Part shown: in pieces, positions 9,567 through 38,304 of the stretch
Position numbering within the stretch: the first letter of the stretch is position 1
Layout: every line of letters begins with the position of its first letter
Source: a virus
Lineage: Duplodnaviria; Heunggongvirae; Uroviricota; Caudoviricetes
DNA length: 38,593 bases
IMG/VR virus record: IMGVR_UViG_2917865565_000005
Location: 1-38,593 of that record
Direction: 5' to 3' (one strand)
Notes under the pieces: model-generated
Seen by the model: only the letters and a program-made list of their open reading frames with translations
Database searches by the model: none
Told to the model about the DNA's origin: nothing
Translations under genes and position numbers: made by a program

Positions 9567-9636
9567 TTACGCTGGTTAACAATTCGTGCTCTTAATAATA
9601 CCAGGCATATCAGGCTGATGAGCGTAAAAAAAACGT

Positions 9637-9679
9637 TTTACATCAGTAAGATTATTATATACTGTAAATATAAACAGTG
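9637..9679 (+). promoter_or_regulatory. SOS-type promoter with LexA box
   Basis: TACTGTAAATATAAACAGTG (9660-9679) fits CTGT-N8-ACAG with an AT-rich spacer; overlaps a sigma70-like promoter (-35 TTTACA 9637-9642, -10 TATACT 9658-9663); directly upstream of ATG 9721. Confidence 0.6.
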
Positions 9680-9720
9680 TTTATGTGTACAGTATTGCTT
9701 GTGGTGTCATAGGAGGAAAA

Positions 9721-9910
9721 ATGCAGGACTATTTTTTGGAGTCTTTGAAGCTCCAGCGCATTGATTTTTTTTCTTAAGCTTGTAGCGGCTAGTGAGTGTA
9801 GTGATGAAGAGAAGGGACTGGCCCTGCAGTGGGTTTCTGAACTGACAGATGAACTCATGGCAAAAATCAGAACCCACGAATACAACCGCTCAATGGATGT
9901 CATCAGTTGA
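9721..9910 (+). CDS. N-terminal portion of a Tum-like SOS-inducible antirepressor (frame broken at a T8 run)
   Basis: ATG 9721 with SD GGAGG 9712-9716; as given it stops after 18 codons (9721..9777); removing one T from T8 (9765-9772) extends it to TGA 9908-9910. Confidence 0.4.
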
Positions 9911-9920
9911 GGTGACTTTT

Positions 9921-10154
9921 ATGCGCATTGAAATAATGATCGATAAAGAGCAGAAGATTAGCCAGTCTACCTTGGACGCCCTTGAATCCGAGCTTTACCG
10001 CAATCTGCGCCCCCTGTATCCCAAAACGGTAATTCGTATCCGTAAAGGTAGCTCTAACGGTGTGGAACTGACCGGACTGCAACTGGATGAAGAAAGAAAA
10101 CAAGTGATGAAAATTATGCAGAAGGTGTGGGAAGACGACAGCTGGCTGCATTAA
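9921..10154 (+). CDS. DinI-like domain protein (probably the C-terminal domain of the Tum-like antirepressor)
   Basis: From ATG 9921: 'MRIEIMIDKEQKISQSTLDALESELYRNLRPLYPKTVIRIRKG...KIMQKVWEDDSWLH', same length and pattern as E. coli DinI (MRIEVTI...WESADDWF) as recalled. Confidence 0.8.
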   Translation: MRIEIMIDKEQKISQSTLDALESELYRNLRPLYPKTVIRIRKGSSNGVELTGLQLDEERKQVMKIMQKVWEDDSWLH

Positions 10155-10162
10155 GAAACGTT

Positions 10163-10192
10163 GCCCCCAGGAGGATTCATTCTGATGGGGGC
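10163..10192. terminator. GC-rich hairpin between convergent genes
   Basis: Stem GCCCCCA (10163-10169) / TGGGGGC (10186-10192), 16-nt loop; lies between the stops of the DinI-like gene (10154) and the ASCH gene (10345). Long loop, weak T-tracts. Confidence 0.3.
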
Positions 10193-10344
10193 TAGTTTGG
10201 GCAACGAGTGAAACGAGGCGTAAGGTGGGTGGGCATTTTGATAAGTGCTCGTTCGCTTTGTGCCAGAGGCGGGCATTAATACAAATTTCACGTGATAAAA
10301 CGGTACTCAGTTATTCTAATCTGACATGCATAAACGTTGTTGGA

Positions 10345-10755
10345 TTACAAAACATCAACAACTTCAAACTCTTCCATAATCAGCTCCATATCGTCAGAAA
10401 AGTAACCTTCACATGTAAAAAATCGTTGATGCTCTCTCTGCCAATATTCAAGACTCAAATCGCCTTCACCTTCCTTGCGAGCGAACTCGGCAGTAACATC
10501 ACAAAAACGCACCAGTCGCATCGACACCAGCCGGGTCACGCATACCGGTACATCCTGGCCGTTAAGGATGATGTTATAGCTCCCAATCCTTGGGGCAAAC
10601 TCTTCCTTCTGGTAAGAGGCATAAGAGCCGCAGGAGGCCGTTTTAATCCCTTTTTTGATAAGTGCTGCAAGCTCGTTAGCCAGTTCAGGGCTGTCGCCCA
10701 CTTGCCAGGCATTCGCGTCCGGATATTTCATCTTTAATTCATCAACCGTAACCAT
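10345..10755 (-). CDS. ASCH/PUA-like domain protein
   Basis: 136 aa; 'LIKKGIKTASCGS' resembles the ASCH GxKT motif (compare YqfB 'ILAGRKTITIRD'); call by pattern recognition only. Confidence 0.5.
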   Translation of the reverse strand: MVTVDELKMKYPDANAWQVGDSPELANELAALIKKGIKTASCGSYASYQKEEFAPRIGSYNIILNGQDVPVCVTRLVSMRLVRFCDVTAEFARKEGEGDLSLEYWQREHQRFFTCEGYFSDDMELIMEEFEVVDVL

Positions 10756-11064
10756 TACAAGTCCTTTCTGATTGTAAAATAGATAAATAGCTGAGCATTA
10801 ATTGTTCAAATATTAACAGTGATGCTCTCTTGTTAGTATCATAGTCCGTTTCTCGTTCACAGCGGACTTTCATCTTTGTAAACCCGTATGATTCGCTTTT
10901 CAGCGGTCATTCAGATACGGATTTACGCTTCCCTTGGCTGTGCATGACTATGCTGCATGAAATCGCATGATCGATTGAGGATCGTTTTTGCAGAGACCTG
11001 CTAGAACTGGCGGGCTTTTACTCATGTCATGCAGGTGCATGAAAACCACTGCATAAAGCGGGCA

Positions 11065-11083
11065 GGCGTGGCGGGGATACGAG
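11065..11083. other. cos: cos cohesive-end site (P2/186-like)
   Basis: GGCGTGGCGGGGATACGAG followed by CGCGCGCTGAC; first 13 nt match the 186 cos 19-mer and the flank matches the P2 left end (GCGCGCTGAC), both recalled from memory. Confidence 0.5.
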
Positions 11084-11163
11084 CGCGCGCTGACATCGTT
11101 AAGTATTGACATATCAGATGTTTAAATAGGAAAATTACCAAAATCCAGAAAAAAGAAAAGAAT

Positions 11164-12313
11164 ATGAAGAAGTTAACTGCGAGACAAAGAGAGATTGACG
11201 TAAAACGCTCGATAAAGTTACGACAAGGGCGTGCTAAAGTTAGAAAAAAAGGTAAATCATTTCACTATAATGTTGAATGGCGTAAGGCTAACTATTGGAT
11301 TGAAGAACAATCAAAAAATGGATTAGATGTACAATTTGTAAGTAAAAAAAAGAAAGGGTTAATTCTAACTTTACCTTCTGAAATGAATTTTTCTACACAC
11401 TACGATGTTACTGTTCAGCATATTAATGCGATTCGAATGTTATCAGAGAGAAAAGGATTGCCTAATGCAGGTTATCAATTAGCATCTGTTAATTTTTTGT
11501 AATTTGAAGAAAATATCGACATCTGCAGCTCTTGTGTTAACTGCAGAGTTATCTAAATGGGATGATGCGATTAGGCAGAGGTTGACTCCAAAAATAGACG
11601 GTTGGGATAAAAATGTTCTACGTAATTTCTATGAATTGGGGTTCTTTGATTTATTCAAAAAAAGCAGGGATATAAAATTAAATTTTAATGATGAGTATTC
11701 AAAAATAAAAGGTAAGCGATTTGTAAAATATCTTAAAGGAAAGTGTGGGGAAATTAAGAAAACAAAAGTATTAAAAGAGGAGATTATTAAATTAGTTGGT
11801 GAGTCTATTGAAAAATGGACTTTCTTACATGGGGGCCTAAGTGAGGCTATTACCAATGTTTCTCATCATGCATATCCTTCTGATTGCGGATATAAAGAAT
11901 ATGATAAGAACTGGTATCTAACAGGATCTTATCATTTAGAAAGTAAGGAATTGAAGATAGTTTTTTATGATCAGGGTGTTGGTATCCCTAAAACTTTACC
12001 TGCATCAAAAGTTTGGGAAAAGGCATTAAATGTATTAGCATCAATTCCTGTATTGGAGCGATATCGTGATGAAGCACTCTTGAAAGCTGCGGTAGAGTTG
12101 GATAGGACAAGTACAGAAGAGGGAGATCGTGGTAAAGGCCTACAGGATCTACTTGAGTTTATTAAACAAAGAGAAAATGGTTATTTATCAATCATGAGCC
12201 TTAAGGGACTTTATAAACACTCAATGAATCAAGGTAATACAAAAATAAAAACTAAGAGTTTTGCATCCCCAATCTATGGTACACTAATAACTTGGAGTGT
12301 ATCTCTTGATTGA
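11164..12313 (+). CDS. GHKL (histidine-kinase-like ATPase fold) protein with basic N-terminal region; ORFs 11164..11502 and 11504..12313 are probably one gene
   Basis: Downstream ORF has N-box 'LSEAITNVSHHAY', G1 'VFYDQGVGIP', G2 'GDRGKGLQDL', G3 'YGTLITW'; it has no ATG or SD (starts at TTG one base after the upstream stop). Removing one T from T6 (11493-11498) fuses the two in frame. Confidence 0.6.
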
Positions 12314-12327
12314 GATGGAGGTTTAAT

Positions 12328-12735
12328 ATGAAAAATCTAGAAATTAATATAGGGAAAGAGTTTTCTTCTACTCCTTCAGGACGTTTCTATTCTGATATGA
12401 CAGATAGCAGCGGCGAACAGTTTAGAGAGGAGCTTTTATGGCCTCGCTTACAATTGCTTAAAGAAAAGCAAAAGATCGACATTATTTTGGATGATGACGT
12501 TGAAGGTTATGGTTCTTCTTTCCTCGTTGAAGGTTTTGCCGGTATAGTAAAATATGGATATATGGATAAACAACAACTATTAAGTAAACTTGAGTTAATT
12601 CAGAGAGATCCTGATTTTGCTTTGTTTAAGAGAAAAATAATACAATATATTAACGAGGCAGTGTTTGATTCAAAGGTTTATGAAAGTACCAAACCTATTT
12701 ATTTGTCTAAGTTGTTGACGCAAAAAAACACGTAA
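12328..12735 (+). CDS. Small STAS-like (anti-sigma-antagonist-like) protein
   Basis: 135 aa from ATG 12328 (SD GGAGG 12317-12321); 'KIDIILDDDVEGYGSSFLVEGFAGIVK' resembles the STAS phospho-serine loop region; stop overlaps the SD of the next gene. Confidence 0.5.
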   Translation: MKNLEINIGKEFSSTPSGRFYSDMTDSSGEQFREELLWPRLQLLKEKQKIDIILDDDVEGYGSSFLVEGFAGIVKYGYMDKQQLLSKLELIQRDPDFALFKRKIIQYINEAVFDSKVYESTKPIYLSKLLTQKNT

Positions 12736-12747
12736 GGAGTAAAGCAA

Positions 12748-13392
12748 ATGGAGCCCAATTATAATTATCATTATATGATGAGTAATAATGAGCTTTATTT
12801 TAGGGCGGGTTATGATGCTCAGCAATATGGGTTTGTTTTTTCTCATTCGGCTGTTGATGATGTCGACTTGGTACATATTATCAATGGTGGTTTTTCATCT
12901 GTTGCAGAAGCTATTAGTAACTCAGGAAACACCACACTTTCTGATGGGATTATACTTGCATTAGCAGGTGCGTTGAGTGCTTTTTTCTTTAATTTGATTC
13001 AAAAAGGAATTGACGCTAAGGCAAAACGTCTCACCAAATCTGGTGAAGCAATGTTATCCTTGATAAATGAATTGGAGGATATTGCAGTACGTTATTGGGT
13101 CAGAGGGCACGATTCATCTTGTGCTGATAATGAAAGCAATATTTGTGATGAGATTAATATCAAAGCCATGTTAATGACCTTGGATAAAAATATTAGGTTT
13201 ATGGTTGATAATTTACCGTTAAAAAACAAGTCTTTAAATAAAAATAAGCTGGAGAAATTTTCTTCTGATATTTATGATTTGGCATCTGGTGAAGATTTCG
13301 AAGCAGAGGTTAGGCCTCCCAATAAAACAAAGGCCTTTGCTATATCGAAAAAATGTAGTGAAGCAAAAGCCATCATTCTTGGTTTGATTTAA
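12748..13392 (+). CDS. Hypothetical protein with one hydrophobic (possible transmembrane) segment
   Basis: 214 aa; SD AAGGAG 12734-12739; hydrophobic stretch 'IILALAGALSAFFFNLI'; stop codon overlaps the portal gene stop on the other strand. Confidence 0.55.
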   Translation: MEPNYNYHYMMSNNELYFRAGYDAQQYGFVFSHSAVDDVDLVHIINGGFSSVAEAISNSGNTTLSDGIILALAGALSAFFFNLIQKGIDAKAKRLTKSGEAMLSLINELEDIAVRYWVRGHDSSCADNESNICDEINIKAMLMTLDKNIRFMVDNLPLKNKSLNKNKLEKFSSDIYDLASGEDFEAEVRPPNKTKAFAISKKCSEAKAIILGLI

Positions 13393-21312: not shown

Positions 21313-21751
21313 ATTGCAGAAGGTGGACGACTGGCTGAGTGCCTTGCTGGCGAATCTGGAGCCAGCCGCAAGAAGCCTCATGATGCGCCAGCTGGCGCAG
21401 GAACTGCGCCGGACACAGCAGCAGAATATCAGGATGCAGCGCAATCCTGATGGCAGCAGTTATGAACCGCGCAGGGTAACAGCACGCAGCAAGAAGGGGC
21501 GCATCAAACGTCAGATGTTTACAAAGCTGCGCACCACAAAATACCTGAAAACTGCCGCCAGCGCCGATTCTGCCAGCGTACAGTTTGAAGGTAAGGTGCA
21601 GCGCATTGCCCGCGTTCATCACTACGGCCTGCGCGATCGCGTCAGTCGTAAGGGACCGGAGGTCCGTTACGCAGAGCGTCGTTTGTTAGGTATTAATGAT
21701 GACGTAGAATCCTTAACCCACGATGTATTATTGCGCTGGCTATCTAATTGA
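21305..21751 (+). CDS. S: Tail completion / virion morphogenesis protein gpS
   Basis: 148 aa, P2 S-like size and position. Confidence 0.8.
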   Translation: MAELQKVDDWLSALLANLEPAARSLMMRQLAQELRRTQQQNIRMQRNPDGSSYEPRRVTARSKKGRIKRQMFTKLRTTKYLKTAASADSASVQFEGKVQRIARVHHYGLRDRVSRKGPEVRYAERRLLGINDDVESLTHDVLLRWLSN

Positions 21752-22636
21752 TTGTTTACCAATCGATGGAGTTAAGTTTTTAGGCCTGAGGGCGAGAAAT
21801 GGTTCATAGTCTATCCATGAGTCCCAGTTAATTAATCCATCATCGAATCCTATATATTTCATTAATACTAAAGGTAAAAGTAAATTTAGATTTGAATAAT
21901 AATCACTTAATTTAATGATACTGCTTGGATCATCTTTCTTAATGTATCCAATATAATTTCCATTGTGGAATAGAGAGTTTCGAAGCGTGCAATAGTGAAT
22001 CACGTTTCTTTGTGGTACAGGGTTGCCTTCTTTAGATACATTAAAACCATAATCTTTTAAAACCTTTGTAATTATTTGTGGTGTATAACTAGATGTCGAC
22101 TCGTTATCGATATATCTGCACAGGGATTCTAATGCTGAGAAATTAAGGAAGTATTTAACATCTACATAGTCCATTCTTTCCCTAAAAGAAAATATAGACT
22201 TATAGAACGCAGTTCTAAAAGGGTTTTGATGAGAATTAATATTTCTATGAAGTTTATCCATCGCAAGCTCAATGAACGCTGAGCGACTCTTTTCAGAGAA
22301 GCAATCTTCAACAATTATTCCTAGTGATGACTTTCTTTTTGACTTCAATTTTAGTGGGAAATTATTATCTAACTTTTCAGGTGTTTCATGTTTCTCTAGG
22401 AAGTTTGATATGATTACATTTTTTTGTGTTCAATGAAACTTAAAACAGCTGAAAGATCATAAATTATTTGAGTGACGGTGTTTTCAGAAGCATGTGCGGG
22501 AGAGAAAAATCCACTTAATACATATTCGCTTCCATCGCATTTATTCTCTTTTAGTTCCTTAAAGGATTTGTAACGAGGTATCAGTGTCCCTCCTTTAAAA
22601 GTAAATTCTTTCGTGAAGCAATATCCATAGATACCG
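21740..22636 (-). pseudogene. AT-rich accessory gene inserted between S and V; hypothetical protein with HEPN-like R-x4-H motif; two ORFs separated at a T7 run
   Basis: Upstream piece from ATG 22636 (SD AAGGAG); downstream piece (21740..22348) has only a TTG start and no SD, but its frame is open back to the upstream stop; adding one base at T7 22419-22425 joins them (about 299 aa). 'CTLRNSLFHNGNY' contains R-N-x3-H. Confidence 0.4.
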
Positions 22637-22674
22637 ATTTGTGTCATCTGTAACTCCTTTGCGCGGATAAACAT

Positions 22675-22692
22675 TGTGTAGTAAGTCATACA
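22675..22692. promoter_or_regulatory. TGT-N12-ACA dyad upstream of gene V (candidate late-promoter activator site)
   Basis: TGTgtagtaagtcatACA; only about 57 bp from the V ATG (22741), closer than at O and FI, so weaker. Confidence 0.35.
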
Positions 22693-22740
22693 TTTCTGAC
22701 TCAATGTCCCACAATATATGTTTGTGCAAATATCGTCGAC

Positions 22741-23319
22741 ATGAATGCACAACTAACCGAAATCATGCGCCTTATCACCAATCTGATCCGCACAGGTGTA
22801 GTCACCGAAGTGGACCGGGAAAACTGGCTGTGTCGGGTGAAAACGGGCGACCTCGAAACCAACTGGATTAACTGGCTGACACTGCGCGCGGGCAAATCGC
22901 GCACCTGGTGGAAACCGTCTGTGGGCGAGCAGGTTGTGCTGTTCAGCCTGGGTGGCAATCTGGAAACCGCGTTTGCCCTGCCTGCTGTCTACTCAAATCA
23001 GTTTCCACCACCTTCAGACTCTGAGGACGGCAACGTGGTTGAGTACCCGGACGGTGGCTGGTTTGAATACGAACCCGCGACCGGGCGCTGGTATGTCAGG
23101 GGCATCAAATCTATGGTCATTGAGGCCGTCGACAACATCACCCTGAAAACCAGTGAGTTTGTGCTGGAGGCTGACCGCACGCGTATTAACAGCGAAGTGG
23201 TGATCAATGGTGGTGTTACCCAGAGTGGCGGTGCAATGAGTTCTAACGGGATCGTGGTTAATGCGCATCAGCATACTGGCGTCCTGAAAGGCGGCGATAC
23301 CACCGGAGGCCCGGTATGA
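22741..23319 (+). CDS. V: Baseplate assembly / spike protein gpV
   Basis: 192 aa; N-terminus and 'WWKPSVGEQVVLFSLGG' align to P2 V as recalled. Confidence 0.85.
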   Translation: MNAQLTEIMRLITNLIRTGVVTEVDRENWLCRVKTGDLETNWINWLTLRAGKSRTWWKPSVGEQVVLFSLGGNLETAFALPAVYSNQFPPPSDSEDGNVVEYPDGGWFEYEPATGRWYVRGIKSMVIEAVDNITLKTSEFVLEADRTRINSEVVINGGVTQSGGAMSSNGIVVNAHQHTGVLKGGDTTGGPV

Positions 23320-25168: not shown

Positions 25169-26790
25169 GCACAAAATTTTATACCCTGCTGACGGAGATT
25201 GGTGCGGCGAAACTTGCCAGCGCCACTGCACTTGGTGTGCCGCTTAAAATTACTCATATGGCGGTGGGGGATGGTGGTGGAGCATTGCCGACGCCGGACG
25301 CAAAGCAGACGGCACTGGTAAATGAGAAACGCCGGGCTGCGCTGAATATGCTCTATATCGACCCGCAGAACAGCAGCCAGATTATTGCTGAACAGGTGAT
25401 CCCCGAAAACGAGGGCGGTTGGTGGATCCGTGAAGTGGGCCTGTTTGATGAATCCGGGGCATTGATTGCCGTGGGCAACTGCCCGGAAAGCTATAAGCCG
25501 CAACTGGCTGAAGGCAGCGGGCGTACCCAGACCGTGCGCATGGTGCTGATTACCAGCAGTACGGACAATATCATCCTGAAAATCGACCCTGCTGTAGTGC
25601 TGGCAACCCGCAAGTATGTGGATGACAAGGCACTGGAGCTGAAGGTGTACGTGGATGACCTGATGGCAAAACATCTTGCCGCACAGGACCCGCATTCACA
25701 GTATGCACCCAAAGAAAGTCCAACGTTTACCGGAACCCCCAAAGCGCCAACGCCAGCGGCGGGGAATAATACCACGCAGGTTGCGACCACCGCATTTGTT
25801 CAGGCGGCACTGACGGCTCTTATTAATGGTGCGCCAGCCACGCTGGACACGCTGAAAGAAATAGCCGCAGCCATAAACAATGATCCGAAATTCAGCACCA
25901 CTATTAACAATGCGCTGGCACTGAAAGCACCACTGTCGAGTCCGGCACTCAGCGGAACGCCGACAGCCCCCACGGCGGCGCAATCGGTCAACAATACACA
26001 GATTGCCACCACGGCATTTGTGAAATCGGCGATTGCGGCAATGGTGGGTTCTGCACCTGCGGCACTGGATACACTGAACGAACTGGCGGCGGCGCTGGGG
26101 AATGACCCGAACTTTGCCACGACAATAACTAACGCCCTTGCGGGGAAGCAGCCAAAGGATGCTACTTTAACGGCGTTGGCAGGGCTTTCTACATCAAAAG
26201 ATAAACTCCCTTATTTTACAGGGGAAGATCAGGCTGCCTTAACTGCACTGACAAGTGTTGGGCGTGCCATTCTTAGCAAGCCCAGCGCACAGGGCGTTCT
26301 TGATTATCTTGGTTTAGGGGATGGCTCTGCATTACCTGTTGGTGTCCCTGTTCCGTGGCCTTCTGCCATTCCACCGACAGGCTGGCTGAAATGCAACGGA
26401 GCGGCTTTTTCGGCAGAAGAATATCCCAAACTGGCAAAGGTTTATCCGACAAATAAATTGCCTGATTTACGTGGTGAGTTTATTCGCGGCTGGGATGATG
26501 GGCGTGGTATTGATGCTGGACGTGCTTTATTAAGCCTTCAGGCTGGAATGCTGGAAAAACACCGCCATATGGTTGTAGCCAACGATGGGTATGATTCAAA
26601 AGAGGAATGGGAACTGGCGGCAATCTTCAGAAAAGCATATACGCAAGGCCGGGGGCTTGATGCTGCCGATGCCGGAGGGACTCTGATTCCATCACCAACG
26701 CTACATACACGAGGGAGTATTGGTAACACAGGTGGGAGCGAAACCCGTCCACGAAATATTGCATTTAACTATATCGTGAGAGCTGCATAA
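25165..26790 (+). CDS. H: Tail fibre protein gpH
   Basis: 541 aa; conserved P2-H-like N-terminus; two tandem internal repeats containing 'NNTQ(I/V)ATTAFV'; C-terminal tail-collar-like region 'LRGEFIRGWDDGRGID...ETRPRNIAFNYIVR'. Confidence 0.85.
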   Translation: MSTKFYTLLTEIGAAKLASATALGVPLKITHMAVGDGGGALPTPDAKQTALVNEKRRAALNMLYIDPQNSSQIIAEQVIPENEGGWWIREVGLFDESGALIAVGNCPESYKPQLAEGSGRTQTVRMVLITSSTDNIILKIDPAVVLATRKYVDDKALELKVYVDDLMAKHLAAQDPHSQYAPKESPTFTGTPKAPTPAAGNNTTQVATTAFVQAALTALINGAPATLDTLKEIAAAINNDPKFSTTINNALALKAPLSSPALSGTPTAPTAAQSVNNTQIATTAFVKSAIAAMVGSAPAALDTLNELAAALGNDPNFATTITNALAGKQPKDATLTALAGLSTSKDKLPYFTGEDQAALTALTSVGRAILSKPSAQGVLDYLGLGDGSALPVGVPVPWPSAIPPTGWLKCNGAAFSAEEYPKLAKVYPTNKLPDLRGEFIRGWDDGRGIDAGRALLSLQAGMLEKHRHMVVANDGYDSKEEWELAAIFRKAYTQGRGLDAADAGGTLIPSPTLHTRGSIGNTGGSETRPRNIAFNYIVRAA

Positions 26791-27390
26791 TGGATAAAGC
26801 CGTATTAAATAGCGAACTTATTGCCACGAAGGCGGGGAATATTACCGTCTATAACTATGATGGTGAAACACGGGAATATATTTCTGAATCAACTGAATAT
26901 CTTGCTGTTGGCGTCGGTATTCCCGCACATTCGTGTTTAGATGCTCCTGGTTCATATAAGTCAGGTTATGTGTCCTGTCGAACTCTGGATTTGAGATCAT
27001 GGGAATATGTCCCTGACCACCGTGGTGAAACGGTCTATAACACATTGAACGGTAAACCGATAGAAATAAAAACCATTGGTGAATACCCGGAAAATGTGAC
27101 CACTCTTGCACCATCCACACCATATGATGTTTGGAATGGGAATGAATGGGTTGTGGACCTACAGGCGAAAAAAAAACGCATTAGAGAAAGTTTTTATAAC
27201 AGAAAGAGATATGGCGATTAATGAAGCTCTGAATTACATATCTCCTTTACAGAGTGAATTATTATTAGGGAGTATTTCGGAGCGAAATAAAGAAATTTTG
27301 CAGGTATGGTTAAACTATATTAATGAGTTAAAGGAAGCGGTATTTGTTTCTGATAAAGCTTCCTTATTGCCTGCTAAGCCAGAATGTTAG
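26790..27390 (+). pseudogene. G: Tail fibre assembly protein gpG; frame broken at an A9 run, probably intact in reality
   Basis: ORF 26790..27221 ends abnormally ('...QAKKKRIRESFYNRKRYGD*'); the conserved C-terminal part ('AINEALNYISPLQ...KEILQVWLNYINELKEA') is in ORF 27106..27390; one A fewer in A9 (27168-27176) joins them (about 200 aa). Confidence 0.75.
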
Positions 27391-27410
27391 TATTGCCTAA
27401 AGCTAGCCAT

Positions 27411-28401
27411 TTATTGGCTGGCTTTTGAGAGCAATATACTTTGTATGTGTGAAAATAATCGGTCCATGATTCTGGAAGAAATTGTACTGCTTAATAAGTA
27501 ACATATAGCAAAGCTGATTATTACTGTACCTACCAATATGAACGGCCATGACAACATCTTATTTAGGTAAGTGGAAATGTATAATATAAATAGACCATGT
27601 AACAGATATATACTAAGACTATTTTTTCCAAACCGCTCTAAAATTACACAGGTGGGTTTTAGCTGCATAAGAGCTAATACAAAAGCCGGAACCGCTGCGT
27701 AGTTGACTACTTTGTATAACATAAGTACAACTATAGATTTATCAAAATAAGAGAATGGAAAAGCGCCGTAGAGAAATATGGTAGGTGCAAGTATCGATAA
27801 AATCACTAATGCAATAACTGCTGAGAATAAAATGAGGTATATCGTATTTTTGTCGTGCCTTATACGTAATAAATTATTCCGATAAAATAACGCTCCTATA
27901 ATGAAGTAGGGTAGAAAATTAATTGTCCTCATAATGGATAGAGTCTGCGAACTGAAATCAATGAATTGAAATGCGAAGCTTATAAGTAAAGAAAGACAAA
28001 GAGGGTAACGGAAGGTGAATAGAACAGAAGCAATTATTTGCCAGAAAAAAAAGGCTTAAAAGATACCACATTATCCAATAAGGCGCGCCAATCTTAAGAT
28101 AACCAGAAATACTTCCTGTCAGCAAGAAGTTGATAAATTCATAAATAAAATTAAAAACAATGAATGGAACAAGAATATGTTTGCTTAATTTGTATATGTC
28201 AAGATTGCTACATCCCTTGCTAAGAAAACCAGAAATTAATACAAAGGCGGGCATGTGAAATGTGTAAATGAAATCATATATGTATTTCACTTGTTCATGT
28301 TCTACGCCACCGCCAAGTATGTGCGCCATAACCACCAGGAAAATTAACGCGCCTTTGAGCGTATCGATAGTGTTATCACGATTATCGATCTGTTGTGCCA
28401 C
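27411..28401 (-). pseudogene. Acyltransferase family 3 (O-antigen O-acetyltransferase-like) membrane protein; frame broken at an A8 run
   Basis: N-terminal motif 'NRDNTIDTLKGALIFLVVMAHIL' and 'FHMPAFVLISGFL'; multiple TM helices; two ORFs (27958..28407 and 27411..27932) join if A8 (28045-28052) is A7; GTG start 28401 with SD AAGGA (TTG 28407 in the ORF track). Confidence 0.7.
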
Positions 28402-28495
28402 GGACAATCCTTAAGTGTATATAGTTAGTTTTCTGTTGAAGACAGTATCCAGGGTAACGGATTCAATTAAAAGTATTAAATGAGAATCTGATAAT

Positions 28496-28513
28496 TGTGC
28501 TGGCCGTCGTACA
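28496..28513. promoter_or_regulatory. TGT-N12-ACA dyad (late-promoter activator site) upstream of FI
   Basis: TGTgctggccgtcgtACA, centred about 83 bp upstream of the FI ATG (28588). Confidence 0.5.
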
Positions 28514-28587
28514 AACGACCTCGCGTGACCTAAGGCAACTTTATTTTCATAGTAGGCATTATCCCTGTAAACCGGAGAGACTGCCTT

Positions 28588-29760
28588 ATGGCTCAGGATT
28601 ACCACCACGGGGTGCGCGTTGTTGAAGTCAACGAAGGCACCCGATCTATTACCACGGTGAGCACCGCCATCGTGGGCATGGTCTGCACGGGCGATGATGC
28701 CGATGCAAAAATGTTTCCTCTTAATAAACCCGTGCTGATCACTGATGTGCTGACTGCCAGCGGTAAAGCGGGTGAGTCCGGCACACTGGCCCGCTCGCTG
28801 GATGCCATCGCTGACCAGGCAAAACCCGTGACCGTTGTTGTGCGTGTGCCGCAGGGTGAAACGGAAGAAGAAACCACGACCAATATCATCGGCGCAGTGA
28901 CTGCTGAAGGTAAAAAAACAGGCATGAAAGCCCTGTTATCTGCCCAGACACAGCTCGGCGTTAAACCGCGCATTCTCGGCGTGCCAGGTCACGATAACAA
29001 AGCCGTTGCTACTGAGTTGCTGAGTGTGGCGCAAAGCCTGCGTGGGTTTGCCTACCTGTCAGCGTATGGCTGCAAGACGGTACAGGAGGCGATCACTTAC
29101 CGTGAAAATTTCAGCCAGCGCGAAGGAATGCTGATCTGGCCTGACTTTACTGGCTGGGACACGGTGCTGAATGCCGAAGCAACGGCATATGCCACCGCCC
29201 GTGCGCTTGGTCTGCGTGCCAAAATTGATGAGCAGACCGGGTGGCACAAAAGCCTGTCCAACGTGGGCGTGAACGGTGTCACCGGAATTTCTGCAGATGT
29301 GTTCTGGGATCTGCAGGACCCGGCAACCGATGCAGGTCTGCTGAACCAGAACGACGTCACCACGCTTGTGCGTAAAGACGGTTTCCGCTTCTGGGGTTCT
29401 CGCTGCCTGAGTGATGACCCGCTCTTTGCCTTCGAAAACTACACCCGCACGGCGCAGGTGCTGACGGACACAATGGCAGAAGCGCACATGTGGGCAGTGG
29501 ACAAACCGCTGAACCCGTCGCTGGCGCGCGACATTATCGAGGGCATCCGCGCCAAAATGCGCAGCCTGGTCAGTCAGGGGTATCTCATTGGTGGTGATTG
29601 CTGGCTGGACGAGTCGGTGAACGACAAAGACACGCTGAAAGCCGGAAAACTCACAATCGACTACGACTACACGCCAGTGCCGCCACTTGAAAACCTGATG
29701 TTGCGTCAGCGCATCACCGATCAGTACCTGGTGAATTTCGCCAGCCAGGTTAGCGCGTAA
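28588..29760 (+). CDS. FI: Contractile tail sheath protein gpFI
   Basis: 390 aa, P2 FI-like length and position. Confidence 0.9.
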
Positions 29761-35970: not shown

Positions 35971-37658
35971 TTATCCGAGTCCTGGCCATACCATGACAAT
36001 GATTGTCCCGGCCAGCGTTAGCAGTACGTTAGCTATTGCATAAGTGCCCGCATAACCTAAGGCTGGGATGTTACTGCGTGCGGTGTCGCTGATGATCTCC
36101 ATTGCCGGAGCACAAGTACGCGCGCCCATCATCGCGCCGAACAGGAGTGCGCGGTTCATACGCAGTACATAAGCGCCGAACAGGAAGCAGATAACCACCG
36201 GCACCAGACTGACAATCAATCCGGCAATTAACATCTGACCACCGATCGCGCCCAGGCCGTTATTAATGCCGCTACCGGCGCTTAAACCAACGCCTGCCAT
36301 AAACACCATCAAGCCGAACTCTTTCACCATGCTTAACGCCCCCTGCGGAATGTAACCGAAGGTCGGGTGGTTAGCGCGCATAAAGCCCAACATAATGCCG
36401 GCGAATAACAAGCCAGCAGCGTTACCCATGCCAAAGCTAAATGTACTGAACTGGAAGGTAATCATCCCGATCATCAGGCCAATAACAAAGAACGCGCAGA
36501 ATGCCAGCAGGTCTGTGACCTGGCTGTGAATCGAGATAAAGCCGATGCGGTCAGCAATGGTTTTCACGCGACGGGCATCGCCGCTCACCTGTAAAACATC
36601 ACCTTTATTAAGCACAACGTTGTCATCAATTGGCATCTCAATCTGGCTGCGGATGACGCGGTTAAGGAAGCAACCGTGATCGGTCAACTTTAGTTGTGCC
36701 AGACGTTTACCTACCGCGTTATGGTTTTTGACGACGACCTCTTCAGTGACGATACGCATGTCGAGAAGGTCACGATCAAAAACTTCTTTACCGTTACGGA
36801 AGCTGGGATCGAGGCGGGCGTGGGCGTCTGGATATCCCACTAACGCTATCTCATCGCCCATTTGCAGTACGGCGTCGCCATCTGGATTTGCCAGAATCCC
36901 GTTACGACGAATACGTTCAATGTAGCAACCGGTTTGACGATAAATACCCAATTCACGCAGATTTTTGCCGTCGGTCCAGGCCACCAGCTCCGGGCCGACA
37001 CGGTAGGCGCGGATCACCGGCAAATAAACTTTGCGGCTGGCATCGGTGTCCAGGCCACGTTCGCGAGCGATTTGTTGGGCGCTGGTCTGTAAATCCTGAT
37101 GTTGCAACTTCGGTAAATAACGTGCACCGACAATTAAACTCACCAGGCCAATTAAATAAGTTAACGCATACCCAAGGCTTAGATTATCCAGTGCTGTGGA
37201 GAGCTGTCCGCTTTCCATACCGGAATGGCGTAATGTGTCGCCAGCACCGACCAGAACCGGTGTCGATGTCATGGAGCCAGCCAACATACCGGCCGTCAGA
37301 CCGATATCCCAGCCAAACAGCTTACCCAACCCTAAGGCGATCGCCAGCGCACTGCTAACCATCACCAGAGCTAACATTAGGTAATTTTTCCCATCGCGGA
37401 AAAAAATGGAAAAAAAAGTTGGGTCCGGCTTCGACCCCGACGCAGAAAATAAACAACATAAAGCCAAGATTAAGCGCGTCGGTGTTAATGCTGAAATGTT
37501 GTTGCCCTAATAGTAACGATACGACTAAAAACGCCAATGGAATTACCCAGTTGGATTGAACCAAGTCGTAATTTTCCTAGACATAGTCCAAGCGCAAGGA
37601 CTACAAATAATAACAGAATGTAATTCCCATTTAACAATTCGGCGACGTTTATATTCAC
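35971..37658 (-). pseudogene. ybjL: Putative transport protein YbjL (host); reading frame broken twice at homopolymers in this sequence
   Basis: Three frame segments encode one contiguous YbjL-like protein; joints at A8 37410-37417 (gives '...[14 protein letters not shown]' versus the other frame '...[14 protein letters not shown]') and A5 37527-37531; span is 562 codons plus 2 extra bases; start GTG 37656-37658. Confidence 0.85.
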
Positions 37659-37925
37659 GGAGACTAACTTCTTGTTTACGAGTAAGCTGTTGAAAGAAAT
37701 GGTAATTTAAGATAATGTTTTTACCTGAAATCAGGGCGCGAATTCATTCAGCGCACTTAAGCAATAGTAAAGAAACAATATATTTTACTAGTGTAATCAC
37801 ATTAAGTACCAACGGCTATAAAAATTGCGTTGGCCTATATTAGCATGGAATGCGAAGCGGCTTTATCTTACTGAACGCCATAGTGGCGAAAATGTGTTCG
37901 ATAGAGGCAGTGTCAGGAGGAGCGA

Positions 37926-38304
37926 GTGAAACATAAACAACGTTGGGCGGGGGCAATCTGCTGTTTTGTCCTCTTCATTGTAGTGTGCCTGTTCCTGGCG
38001 ACGCAAATGAAAGGCGCTTTTCGGGCTGCCGGGCATCCTGAAATCGGCTTGCTGTTTTTCATTCTTCCTGGGGCGGTTGCCAGCTTTTTTTTCGCAGCGT
38101 AGAGAAGTCCTTAAACCGCTGTTTGGCGCAATGCTGGCGGCACCGTGTTCTATGTTAATTATGCGTCTGTTTTTTTCACCAACACGCTCATTCTGGCAAG
38201 AGCTGGCATGGTTATTGAGCGCCGTCTTCTGGTGTGCGTTGGGGGCGTTGTGTTTCTTGTTTATTAGTAGTTTGTTCAAGTCACAGCACAGAAAAAATCA
38301 ATAA
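37926..38304 (+). pseudogene. ybjM: Inner membrane protein YbjM (host); frame broken at a T8 run
   Basis: GTG 37926 reads 'VKHKQRWAGAICCFVLFIVVCLFLATQMKGAFRAAGHPEIGLLFFILPGAVASFFFAA*'; remainder is in the +1 frame (ORF 38077..38304 '...SQRREVLKPLFGAMLAAPCSMLIMR...'); joint at T8 38085-38092. Confidence 0.8.

Follow-up and report, generated by a model that had tools for sequence, protein, structure and literature searches.

Escherichia strain E2562 carries, within a P2-like prophage of the phi-b0847 type, a cargo ('moron') gene for a 329-aa AT3-only membrane acyltransferase. We put at roughly three in four the probability of the overall reading in which this gene is intact, the frameshift interrupting it is a miscall, and the most likely acceptor of its product is the receptor glycan of the phage's own fibre. 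The gene lies between the tail-fibre assembly gene G and the sheath gene FI, belongs to the PF01757 family over its full length, and is physically linked to the fibre tip and its chaperone.

A P2-like prophage with an acyltransferase gene between G and FI

The window analysed here is a stretch of 38,593 nucleotides (IMG/VR record IMGVR_UViG_2917865565_000005) belonging to the Ion Torrent assembly of E2562. This strain, of Escherichia cryptic clade II, comes from Hong Kong intertidal sediment and was sequenced on that platform (PMC6639607). The prophage spans from an integrase gene (1-1032) to ogr. From 35799, a point that closely follows rcdA and precedes ybjL, the sequence matches the E. coli chromosome again, which places the insertion site between these two genes. 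In the host flank, ybjL-ybjM-grxA, identity to E. coli is 91%. P2-like prophages of Klebsiella pneumoniae match the late region at 95-96% identity. The backbone is collinear with phi-b0847 of CFT073 and mostly 92-96% identical to it (85-87% in two short early-region segments), and both prophages sit at rcdA/ybjL.

The acyltransferase gene occupies 27411-28401 on the minus strand. It appears as two consecutive minus-strand ORFs in different frames, 27958-28407 (149 aa from a TTG, 147 aa from the GTG at 28401) and 27411-27932 (173 aa), flanked by the plus-strand genes for tail-fibre assembly (26790-27390) and tail sheath (28588-29760). The frame switches at a run of eight A's at 28045-28052 (T8 on the coding strand). 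Deleting one A yields a single 329-aa frame that starts at GTG 28401, reads ...WYLLSLFFWQIIAS... and is preceded by a Shine-Dalgarno AAGGA at 28408-28412, 6 nt upstream of the start codon. The GC content of the gene is 0.32-0.34 (34% overall) vs ~0.55 in its flanks. A reading of this DNA made from sequence alone (the sequence-only reading) had described an AT-rich minus-strand gene between G and FI that could be read through only if the A8 run were corrected; the ORFs and GC profile agree with that description and with the coordinates it gave, and A7 does join both ORFs into 329 aa. The fibre chaperone gene, whose intact form encodes a 199-aa Caudo_TAP protein, is convergent with the acyltransferase gene and ends 20 bp from its stop codon.

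A TGT-N12-ACA dyad at 28496-28513, upstream of FI, corresponds to the Ogr/Delta-type activator site of P2 late promoters. This element is kept in CFT073, in Klebsiella phage Kp4849-2 and in the relative L091, and it forms the right-hand limit of the exchangeable segment described below. Because the late promoter element of FI is conserved from 28496, the acyltransferase-specific upstream DNA amounts to ~28402-28495 (minus strand, including the AAGGA); cassette-free backbones are homologous again from ~28563-28587. The acyltransferase's own promoter should lie within 28402-28495, and we assume expression in the lysogen. A promoter and terminator scan did no better than on shuffled sequence, in which promoter-like matches were just as common, and it yielded no convincing promoter.

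Cargo is also found elsewhere in the prophage. A slot between tail genes S and V holds a 301-aa gene (21740-22752, minus strand; phrog_4373, of unknown function) that had no match in Pfam or PADLOC and that two erroneously inserted bases (22425-22426) divide in the window; the prophage on contig L001, otherwise 96% identical, has an FRG-domain gene there instead. Between the integrase and CI repressor genes, at 1106 to ~2900 on the minus strand, lies a defence gene of the P2 Old type (E 1e-146 and 1e-50 to PADLOC Old), present in at least three pieces broken at homopolymer runs such as the T7 at 2724-2730; CFT073 phi-b0847 has an unrelated gene at the position of old. Another slot, flanked by replication gene A and portal gene Q (9567-13392), contains several ORFs, including phrog_3364 and phrog_5816 of unknown function, and its content differs from that of CFT073 phi-b0847. 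Several of these A/Q ORFs had no Pfam or PADLOC match.

Assembly comparison points to a homopolymer miscall

Comparison of assemblies indicates that the extra A at 28045-28052 is an Ion Torrent homopolymer miscall (A8 for a true A7) and that the gene is intact in the organism. This platform is prone to errors in homopolymer length. The 147-aa fragment is identical to NCBI TGC20159.1 (locus tag CQJ28_04385) of Escherichia sp. E2562, and a second NCBI assembly of E2562 encodes an intact 329-aa protein (TLI83795.1 / WP_138158492.1, FEK43_07715) that is residue-for-residue identical to the joined sequence. A 99%-identical intact 329-aa protein (P0001) is encoded at the equivalent position on three contigs (L001, L002 and L003), each with A7. 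L087, a Logan assembly of run SRR8835204, differs from window positions 15163-36793 (21.6 kb) by 0 substitutions and 4 indels. Each of the four lengthens a homopolymer run of the window (22425-6, 27168, 28045 and 35938), three of them by a single added A. Three of the four break genes, namely those for the 301-aa cargo protein, the fibre chaperone and the acyltransferase, and all three genes are intact in L087.

If the prophage were decaying, +1 slippage in the A-run could have inactivated the acyltransferase for good. A genuine pseudogene of this kind would fit the A8 in the window, the annotation by NCBI of only the 147-aa fragment from this assembly, and the breaks in other prophage genes (chaperone, old and the 301-aa gene). 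We rejected this explanation as very improbable, given the A7 and the intact gene in both L087, which is an independent read assembly, and the second E2562 assembly. The restriction of the L087 differences to added homopolymer bases, the breaks at homopolymers in the conserved host genes ybjL and ybjM, and the sequencing platform also speak against it. Slightly less probable still is that slipped-strand mispairing in the A7/A8 tract serves as a phase-variation switch for surface acylation, of the kind found in H. influenzae oafA. Phase variation is described for some AT3 surface-modification genes (review PMC9558356), and the tract does differ in length between two assemblies of one strain. 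Against such a switch, the run encodes conserved residues (L-F-F-W), three of four homologues lack it or have it interrupted, its length is A7 in all four relatives checked at 97-100% identity (L001-L003 and L087), and +1 or -1 homopolymer errors also occur in unrelated genes and intergenic DNA of the same assembly. Seven A's are, moreover, short for frequent slippage. We therefore discarded the phase-variable class, since the repeat is not kept as a tract, its length is constant in close relatives, and Ion Torrent error explains the difference, and we retain the miscall as the cause of the break.

The same kind of error is found in other genes of the window. The host genes in 35971-38300 are frameshifted at homopolymers relative to E. 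coli, with indels at 37410 and 37527 in ybjL and at 37888 and 38085 in ybjM; in L087, ybjL is intact and called at 561 aa. The fibre chaperone gene is split by an A9 run at 27168-27176 into ORFs of 143 aa and 94 aa. Its relatives and L087 have A8 at this run and the intact Caudo_TAP protein, so the Ion Torrent artefact is again the cause. Because homopolymer indels break ybjL and ybjM as well, this assembly over-reports pseudogenes and its pseudogene calls are not trustworthy.

The product is an AT3-only protein with a predicted ten-helix fold

The sequence-only reading had assigned the gene to the acyltransferase-3 family, and the joined protein bears this out, matching Pfam PF01757 (Acyl_transf_3) at 75.3 bits (E 6e-21) over model positions 3-324 of 326. 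Each fragment alone also exceeds the curated cut-off of 31 bits (41.1 and 39.4 bits), and these matches together exclude a chance ORF. The protein consists of the PF01757 domain alone. An SGNH domain and an 11th helix are absent from its 329 aa, and the model ends at helix 10 and a short helix.

Characterised bacterial AT3 acetyltransferases have in common the motifs R/K-X10-H in TMH1, FFXISG in TMH2, and RXXR (Pearson et al. 2020, PMC7448272). [quoted passage not shown] In the E2562 protein, K16 and H27 are ten residues apart as in R/K-X10-H, and H27 is invariant among 8 aligned sequences and kept by at least 90% of the 66 sequences in a larger alignment. The FFXISG-type motif reads F53-V-L-I-S-G58, with G58 invariant and F53 at least 90% conserved among the 66 sequences. 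The RXXR position reads K71-L-S-K74, with a subfamily consensus of KxxK, and thus keeps the basic character but not the arginines. An N-terminal family motif named by the sequence-only reading is present as D13..K16-G-A...V23-V24..H27, one residue off the spacing it had given (an immaterial difference), and its FHMP is found at residues 48-51.

A confident AlphaFold2 model built from the 66-sequence alignment (pLDDT 92.5, pTM 0.91) has 10 TM helices and a short C-terminal helix, in keeping with the earlier proposal of a multi-pass membrane protein. Fourteen Lys/Arg residues fall on the predicted cytoplasmic side vs 4 on the periplasmic side, which fits the N-in/C-in topology of AT3-only enzymes. 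In a Foldseek search with the model, the only solved fold neighbour was human HGSNAT, in cryo-EM complexes with acetyl-CoA or CoA (probability 0.92-1.00, TM ~0.5), and a PDB sequence search with the protein found no match. This fold match is expected because AT3 and HGSNAT share a recently described superfamily, 'TmAT' (PMC12423673). The model accordingly predicts a ten-helix, N-in fold with a central cavity, shared with HGSNAT.

Family searches gave a partial 'O-acetyltransferase' match in PHROGs, only far sub-threshold matches to MdoC and NolL in NCBIfam, and no match in PADLOC. With no specific similarity to enzymes of known acceptor (Oac and WecH, nor any through NCBIfam or PADLOC), the acceptor is unassignable by homology.

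Similarities to known acyltransferases

The closest non-identical relatives are a 59%-identical protein from Enterobacter and then proteins at 39-48%. DNA searches for near and distant matches to the gene found none in 5,426 complete E. coli genomes or in INPHARED phages, and by this measure it is rare in both sets. In tblastn searches against phages, only relatives below 32% identity were recovered, in phages of Gram-positive bacteria and Acinetobacter. Among the matches listed from GTDB species representatives, identity was at most 39% over the best segment (27-33% full-length), mostly in Bacillaceae.

The sequence-only reading had called the protein 'O-antigen acetylase-like', which holds at the family level and does not extend to specific similarity with Sf6 Oac or WecH. 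Like Oac of Shigella phage Sf6, the E2562 protein is AT3-only, ~330 aa long, phage-borne, encoded convergently with a receptor-binding protein gene, and endowed with the TMH1 His and FxxISG motifs. It differs from Oac, an O-antigen rhamnose 2-O-acetyltransferase, in that similarity is undetectable past the first ~55 residues (hhalign probability 0.4%, 53 N-terminal columns), in having KLSK where RXXR is essential in Oac and OafA, and in its setting, Sf6 being a P22-like podovirus and the E2562 element a P2-like prophage. With WecH (YiaH, the E. coli ECA GlcNAc 6-O-acetyltransferase) it shares the AT3-only architecture, PF01757 and a length of ~330 aa, but alignment is confined to the N-terminal motifs (hhalign probability 21%, 65 columns), and WecH is encoded by a chromosomal housekeeping gene rather than phage cargo. 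JGI labels relatives of the E2562 enzyme 'fucose 4-O-acetylase-like'. Salmonella OafA and OafB have the AT3 fold and the R/K-X10-H catalytic motif in common with it, and OafB is likewise prophage-borne; unlike the AT3-SGNH proteins OafA, OafB and OatA, it has neither the 11th helix nor the periplasmic SGNH domain.

By position, the nearest published counterpart is neaT of CFT073. In phi-b0847, 'moron position 2' lies between G and FI and is occupied by one gene only, neaT, a PF01757 member that runs antiparallel and is exceptionally rich in AT (Wiles et al. 2013, PLoS Pathog, PMC3573123). The E2562 gene corresponds to this type of moron, being a single antiparallel AT-rich PF01757 gene between fibre assembly and sheath genes in a prophage at rcdA/ybjL, and the sequence-only reading had placed it correctly, at the P2 cargo position between G and FI. 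Both proteins are AT3-only and ~330-340 aa long, both genes are strikingly AT-rich (29.8% GC for neaT, 34% for the window gene), and homologues of both are mostly in Firmicutes (for neaT, Firmicutes and Bacteroidetes; PMC3573123). The two are nevertheless not orthologous. BLASTP aligned only a 98-aa stretch (E 0.019), and hhalign profile alignment gave 18% identity over 260 columns (E 6e-5, probability 65%). The adjoining fibre tip and chaperone also differ (the chaperone has 158 aa in CFT073 and 199 aa in the window), the block being exchanged as a whole. neaT contributes to virulence in zebrafish and mouse bacteraemia models and alters aggregation and phagocyte association; no acceptor was identified, and LPS is unmentioned in the main text (PMC3573123).

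The acyltransferase gene is linked to the fibre tip and its chaperone

In blastn comparison with CFT073 phi-b0847, 26153-28563 is the only long block of the late region that is non-homologous. It covers the C-terminal tip of the fibre, the chaperone gene and the acyltransferase gene, and the Klebsiella relatives Kp4849-2 and Kp4865-2 diverge over a matching block (26126-28587). The backbones of these two relatives are 95-96% identical to the window, and their G/FI slot (Kp4849-2, L004 24980-27131; Kp4865-2, L005 36550-38237) holds a Hin/Cin-family DNA invertase. In Kp4849-2 the invertase accompanies inverted alternative fibre-tip and chaperone segments, another way to vary host range at the G/FI locus; in Kp4865-2 it adjoins an ORF that may be an IS remnant.

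Homologues of the acyltransferase at 39-48% identity are the immediate downstream neighbours of a Caudo_TAP gene, and converge with it, in every relative with readable context (L089, L090, L091-L093, L094 and L100-L103). All except L094 are P2-like prophages, with the usual arrangement or an inverted FI-U module; they include L089 from Enterobacter pseudoroggenkampii. L094 is a myovirus that is not P2-like and has a different baseplate (Phage_Wedge1, Sheath_initiator). Its homology with L089 and L091 is confined to a block of 2.16 kb, at ~80% nucleotide identity, made up of fibre tip, chaperone and AT3 gene; these three thus move together between unrelated tail backbones. The AT3 genes of these loci have 32-34% GC, as against 48-54% in the surrounding loci.

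The chaperones that adjoin AT3 genes show no special kinship to the window chaperone, at 51-54% identity vs 53% for a phage that lacks AT3. We accordingly dropped the idea that chaperone and AT3 diverged together. The gene order points to physical linkage of AT3 with fibre tip and chaperone, and we claim linkage only, not co-evolution.

An AT3-only gene of 31% identity is also present in Escherichia albertii (L095 and L096), directly after a P22-type tailspike gene at the prophage end, an arrangement that mirrors Sf6 oac, which is convergent with its tailspike gene. Downstream of the E. albertii gene are type III effector-like genes (OspG kinase, NleG and PipA).

Proposed mechanism and acceptor

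In the scheme put forward for the AT3 family, acyl-CoA enters a cytoplasm-facing cavity and extends through a pore, and the acyl group passes near the TMH1 His to a sugar at the outer face; AT3-only enzymes are thought to achieve transfer without an SGNH partner (PMC7448272; Newman/Tindall 2023, PMC9833829; 2022 review PMC9558356). The residues that this scheme requires are present in the E2562 protein. On this model, acyl-CoA, most probably acetyl-CoA, would enter the cytoplasm-facing cavity of the 10 TM helices and be held by K16 and the basic cytoplasmic-face residues K71 and K74. The acyl group would come to lie close to H27, where helix 1 ends on the periplasmic side, and would pass directly, with no SGNH domain involved, to a hydroxyl group of an envelope glycan on that side.

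Because the acyltransferase travels with the fibre tip and chaperone, the acceptor is most likely the surface glycan that the linked fibre recognises. This would be LPS O-antigen or core or, less likely, ECA or capsule. A lysogen with a surface altered in this way would keep the same phage and similar ones from adsorbing and may change in antigenicity and host interactions, as reported for neaT. We consider it somewhat better than an even chance that the acceptor is the fibre's own receptor glycan in the LPS O-antigen or core, with receptor masking or antigenic change as the result. The O-antigen acetylation and serotype conversion proposed by the sequence-only reading would apply to the E2562 enzyme by analogy.

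The enzyme might instead be intact and act on an acceptor other than LPS, such as peptidoglycan, enterobacterial common antigen, osmoregulated periplasmic glucans or an exopolysaccharide, to the benefit mainly of the host (through envelope properties, aggregation or immune evasion, as proposed for neaT) rather than through phage exclusion. AT3-only enzymes are known to act on all these acceptors (PMC9558356), the weak sub-threshold NCBIfam matches are to MdoC (OPG succinylation) and NolL, and the nearest non-enterobacterial relatives among the matches listed, at 27-33%, are in LPS-free Bacillaceae, Listeria and Staphylococcaceae; the neaT phenotypes of aggregation and phagocyte association would also suit such an acceptor. 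Against this, all enterobacterial cases examined show the gene tightly linked to a receptor-binding module (a tailspike, or a fibre tip with its chaperone), which is the pattern of receptor-modifying conversion genes such as Sf6 oac beside its tailspike gene, and lysozyme sensitivity is unchanged in neaT mutants (PMC3573123). On balance we regard an acceptor other than LPS as the less probable option, and prefer modification of the fibre's receptor glycan. Effects on host fitness like those of neaT would fit either reading.

More tentatively, the fibre tip, chaperone and AT3 gene might form a self-contained cassette that combines host range with receptor masking. Unrelated AT3 subfamilies, such as those of neaT and the E2562 gene, would then be swapped together with the matching tip, even across different myovirus backbones, and each AT3 would modify the receptor glycan of its own tip. 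Were this so, a single recombination event would change both the host range of the phage and what its lysogen excludes.

Discussion

Parts of this picture were already known. The second E2562 assembly annotates the gene as an 'acyltransferase family protein', and the kind of element, an AT3 moron between G and FI in phi-b0847-type prophages, has been known since 2013 (PMC3573123). What we add is in no case large: the break is an artefact, the neaT slot can hold a second, non-orthologous AT3, and tip, chaperone and AT3 are exchanged as a block. Phage specialists will find nothing surprising in these findings.

An apparent prophage pseudogene is here an artefact of the sequencing platform, and at least five genes are falsely broken in the 38.6-kb window: those for the acyltransferase, the fibre chaperone, Old and the 301-aa cargo protein, and ybjL. 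The occupant of the neaT slot matters because neaT affects the bloodstream fitness of uropathogenic E. coli (PMC3573123). If the E2562 enzyme does acylate the phage's own receptor, a surface antigen of the host and its susceptibility to phage would both be altered, and receptor acylation would offer a simple handle for finding the acceptor of neaT-like enzymes.
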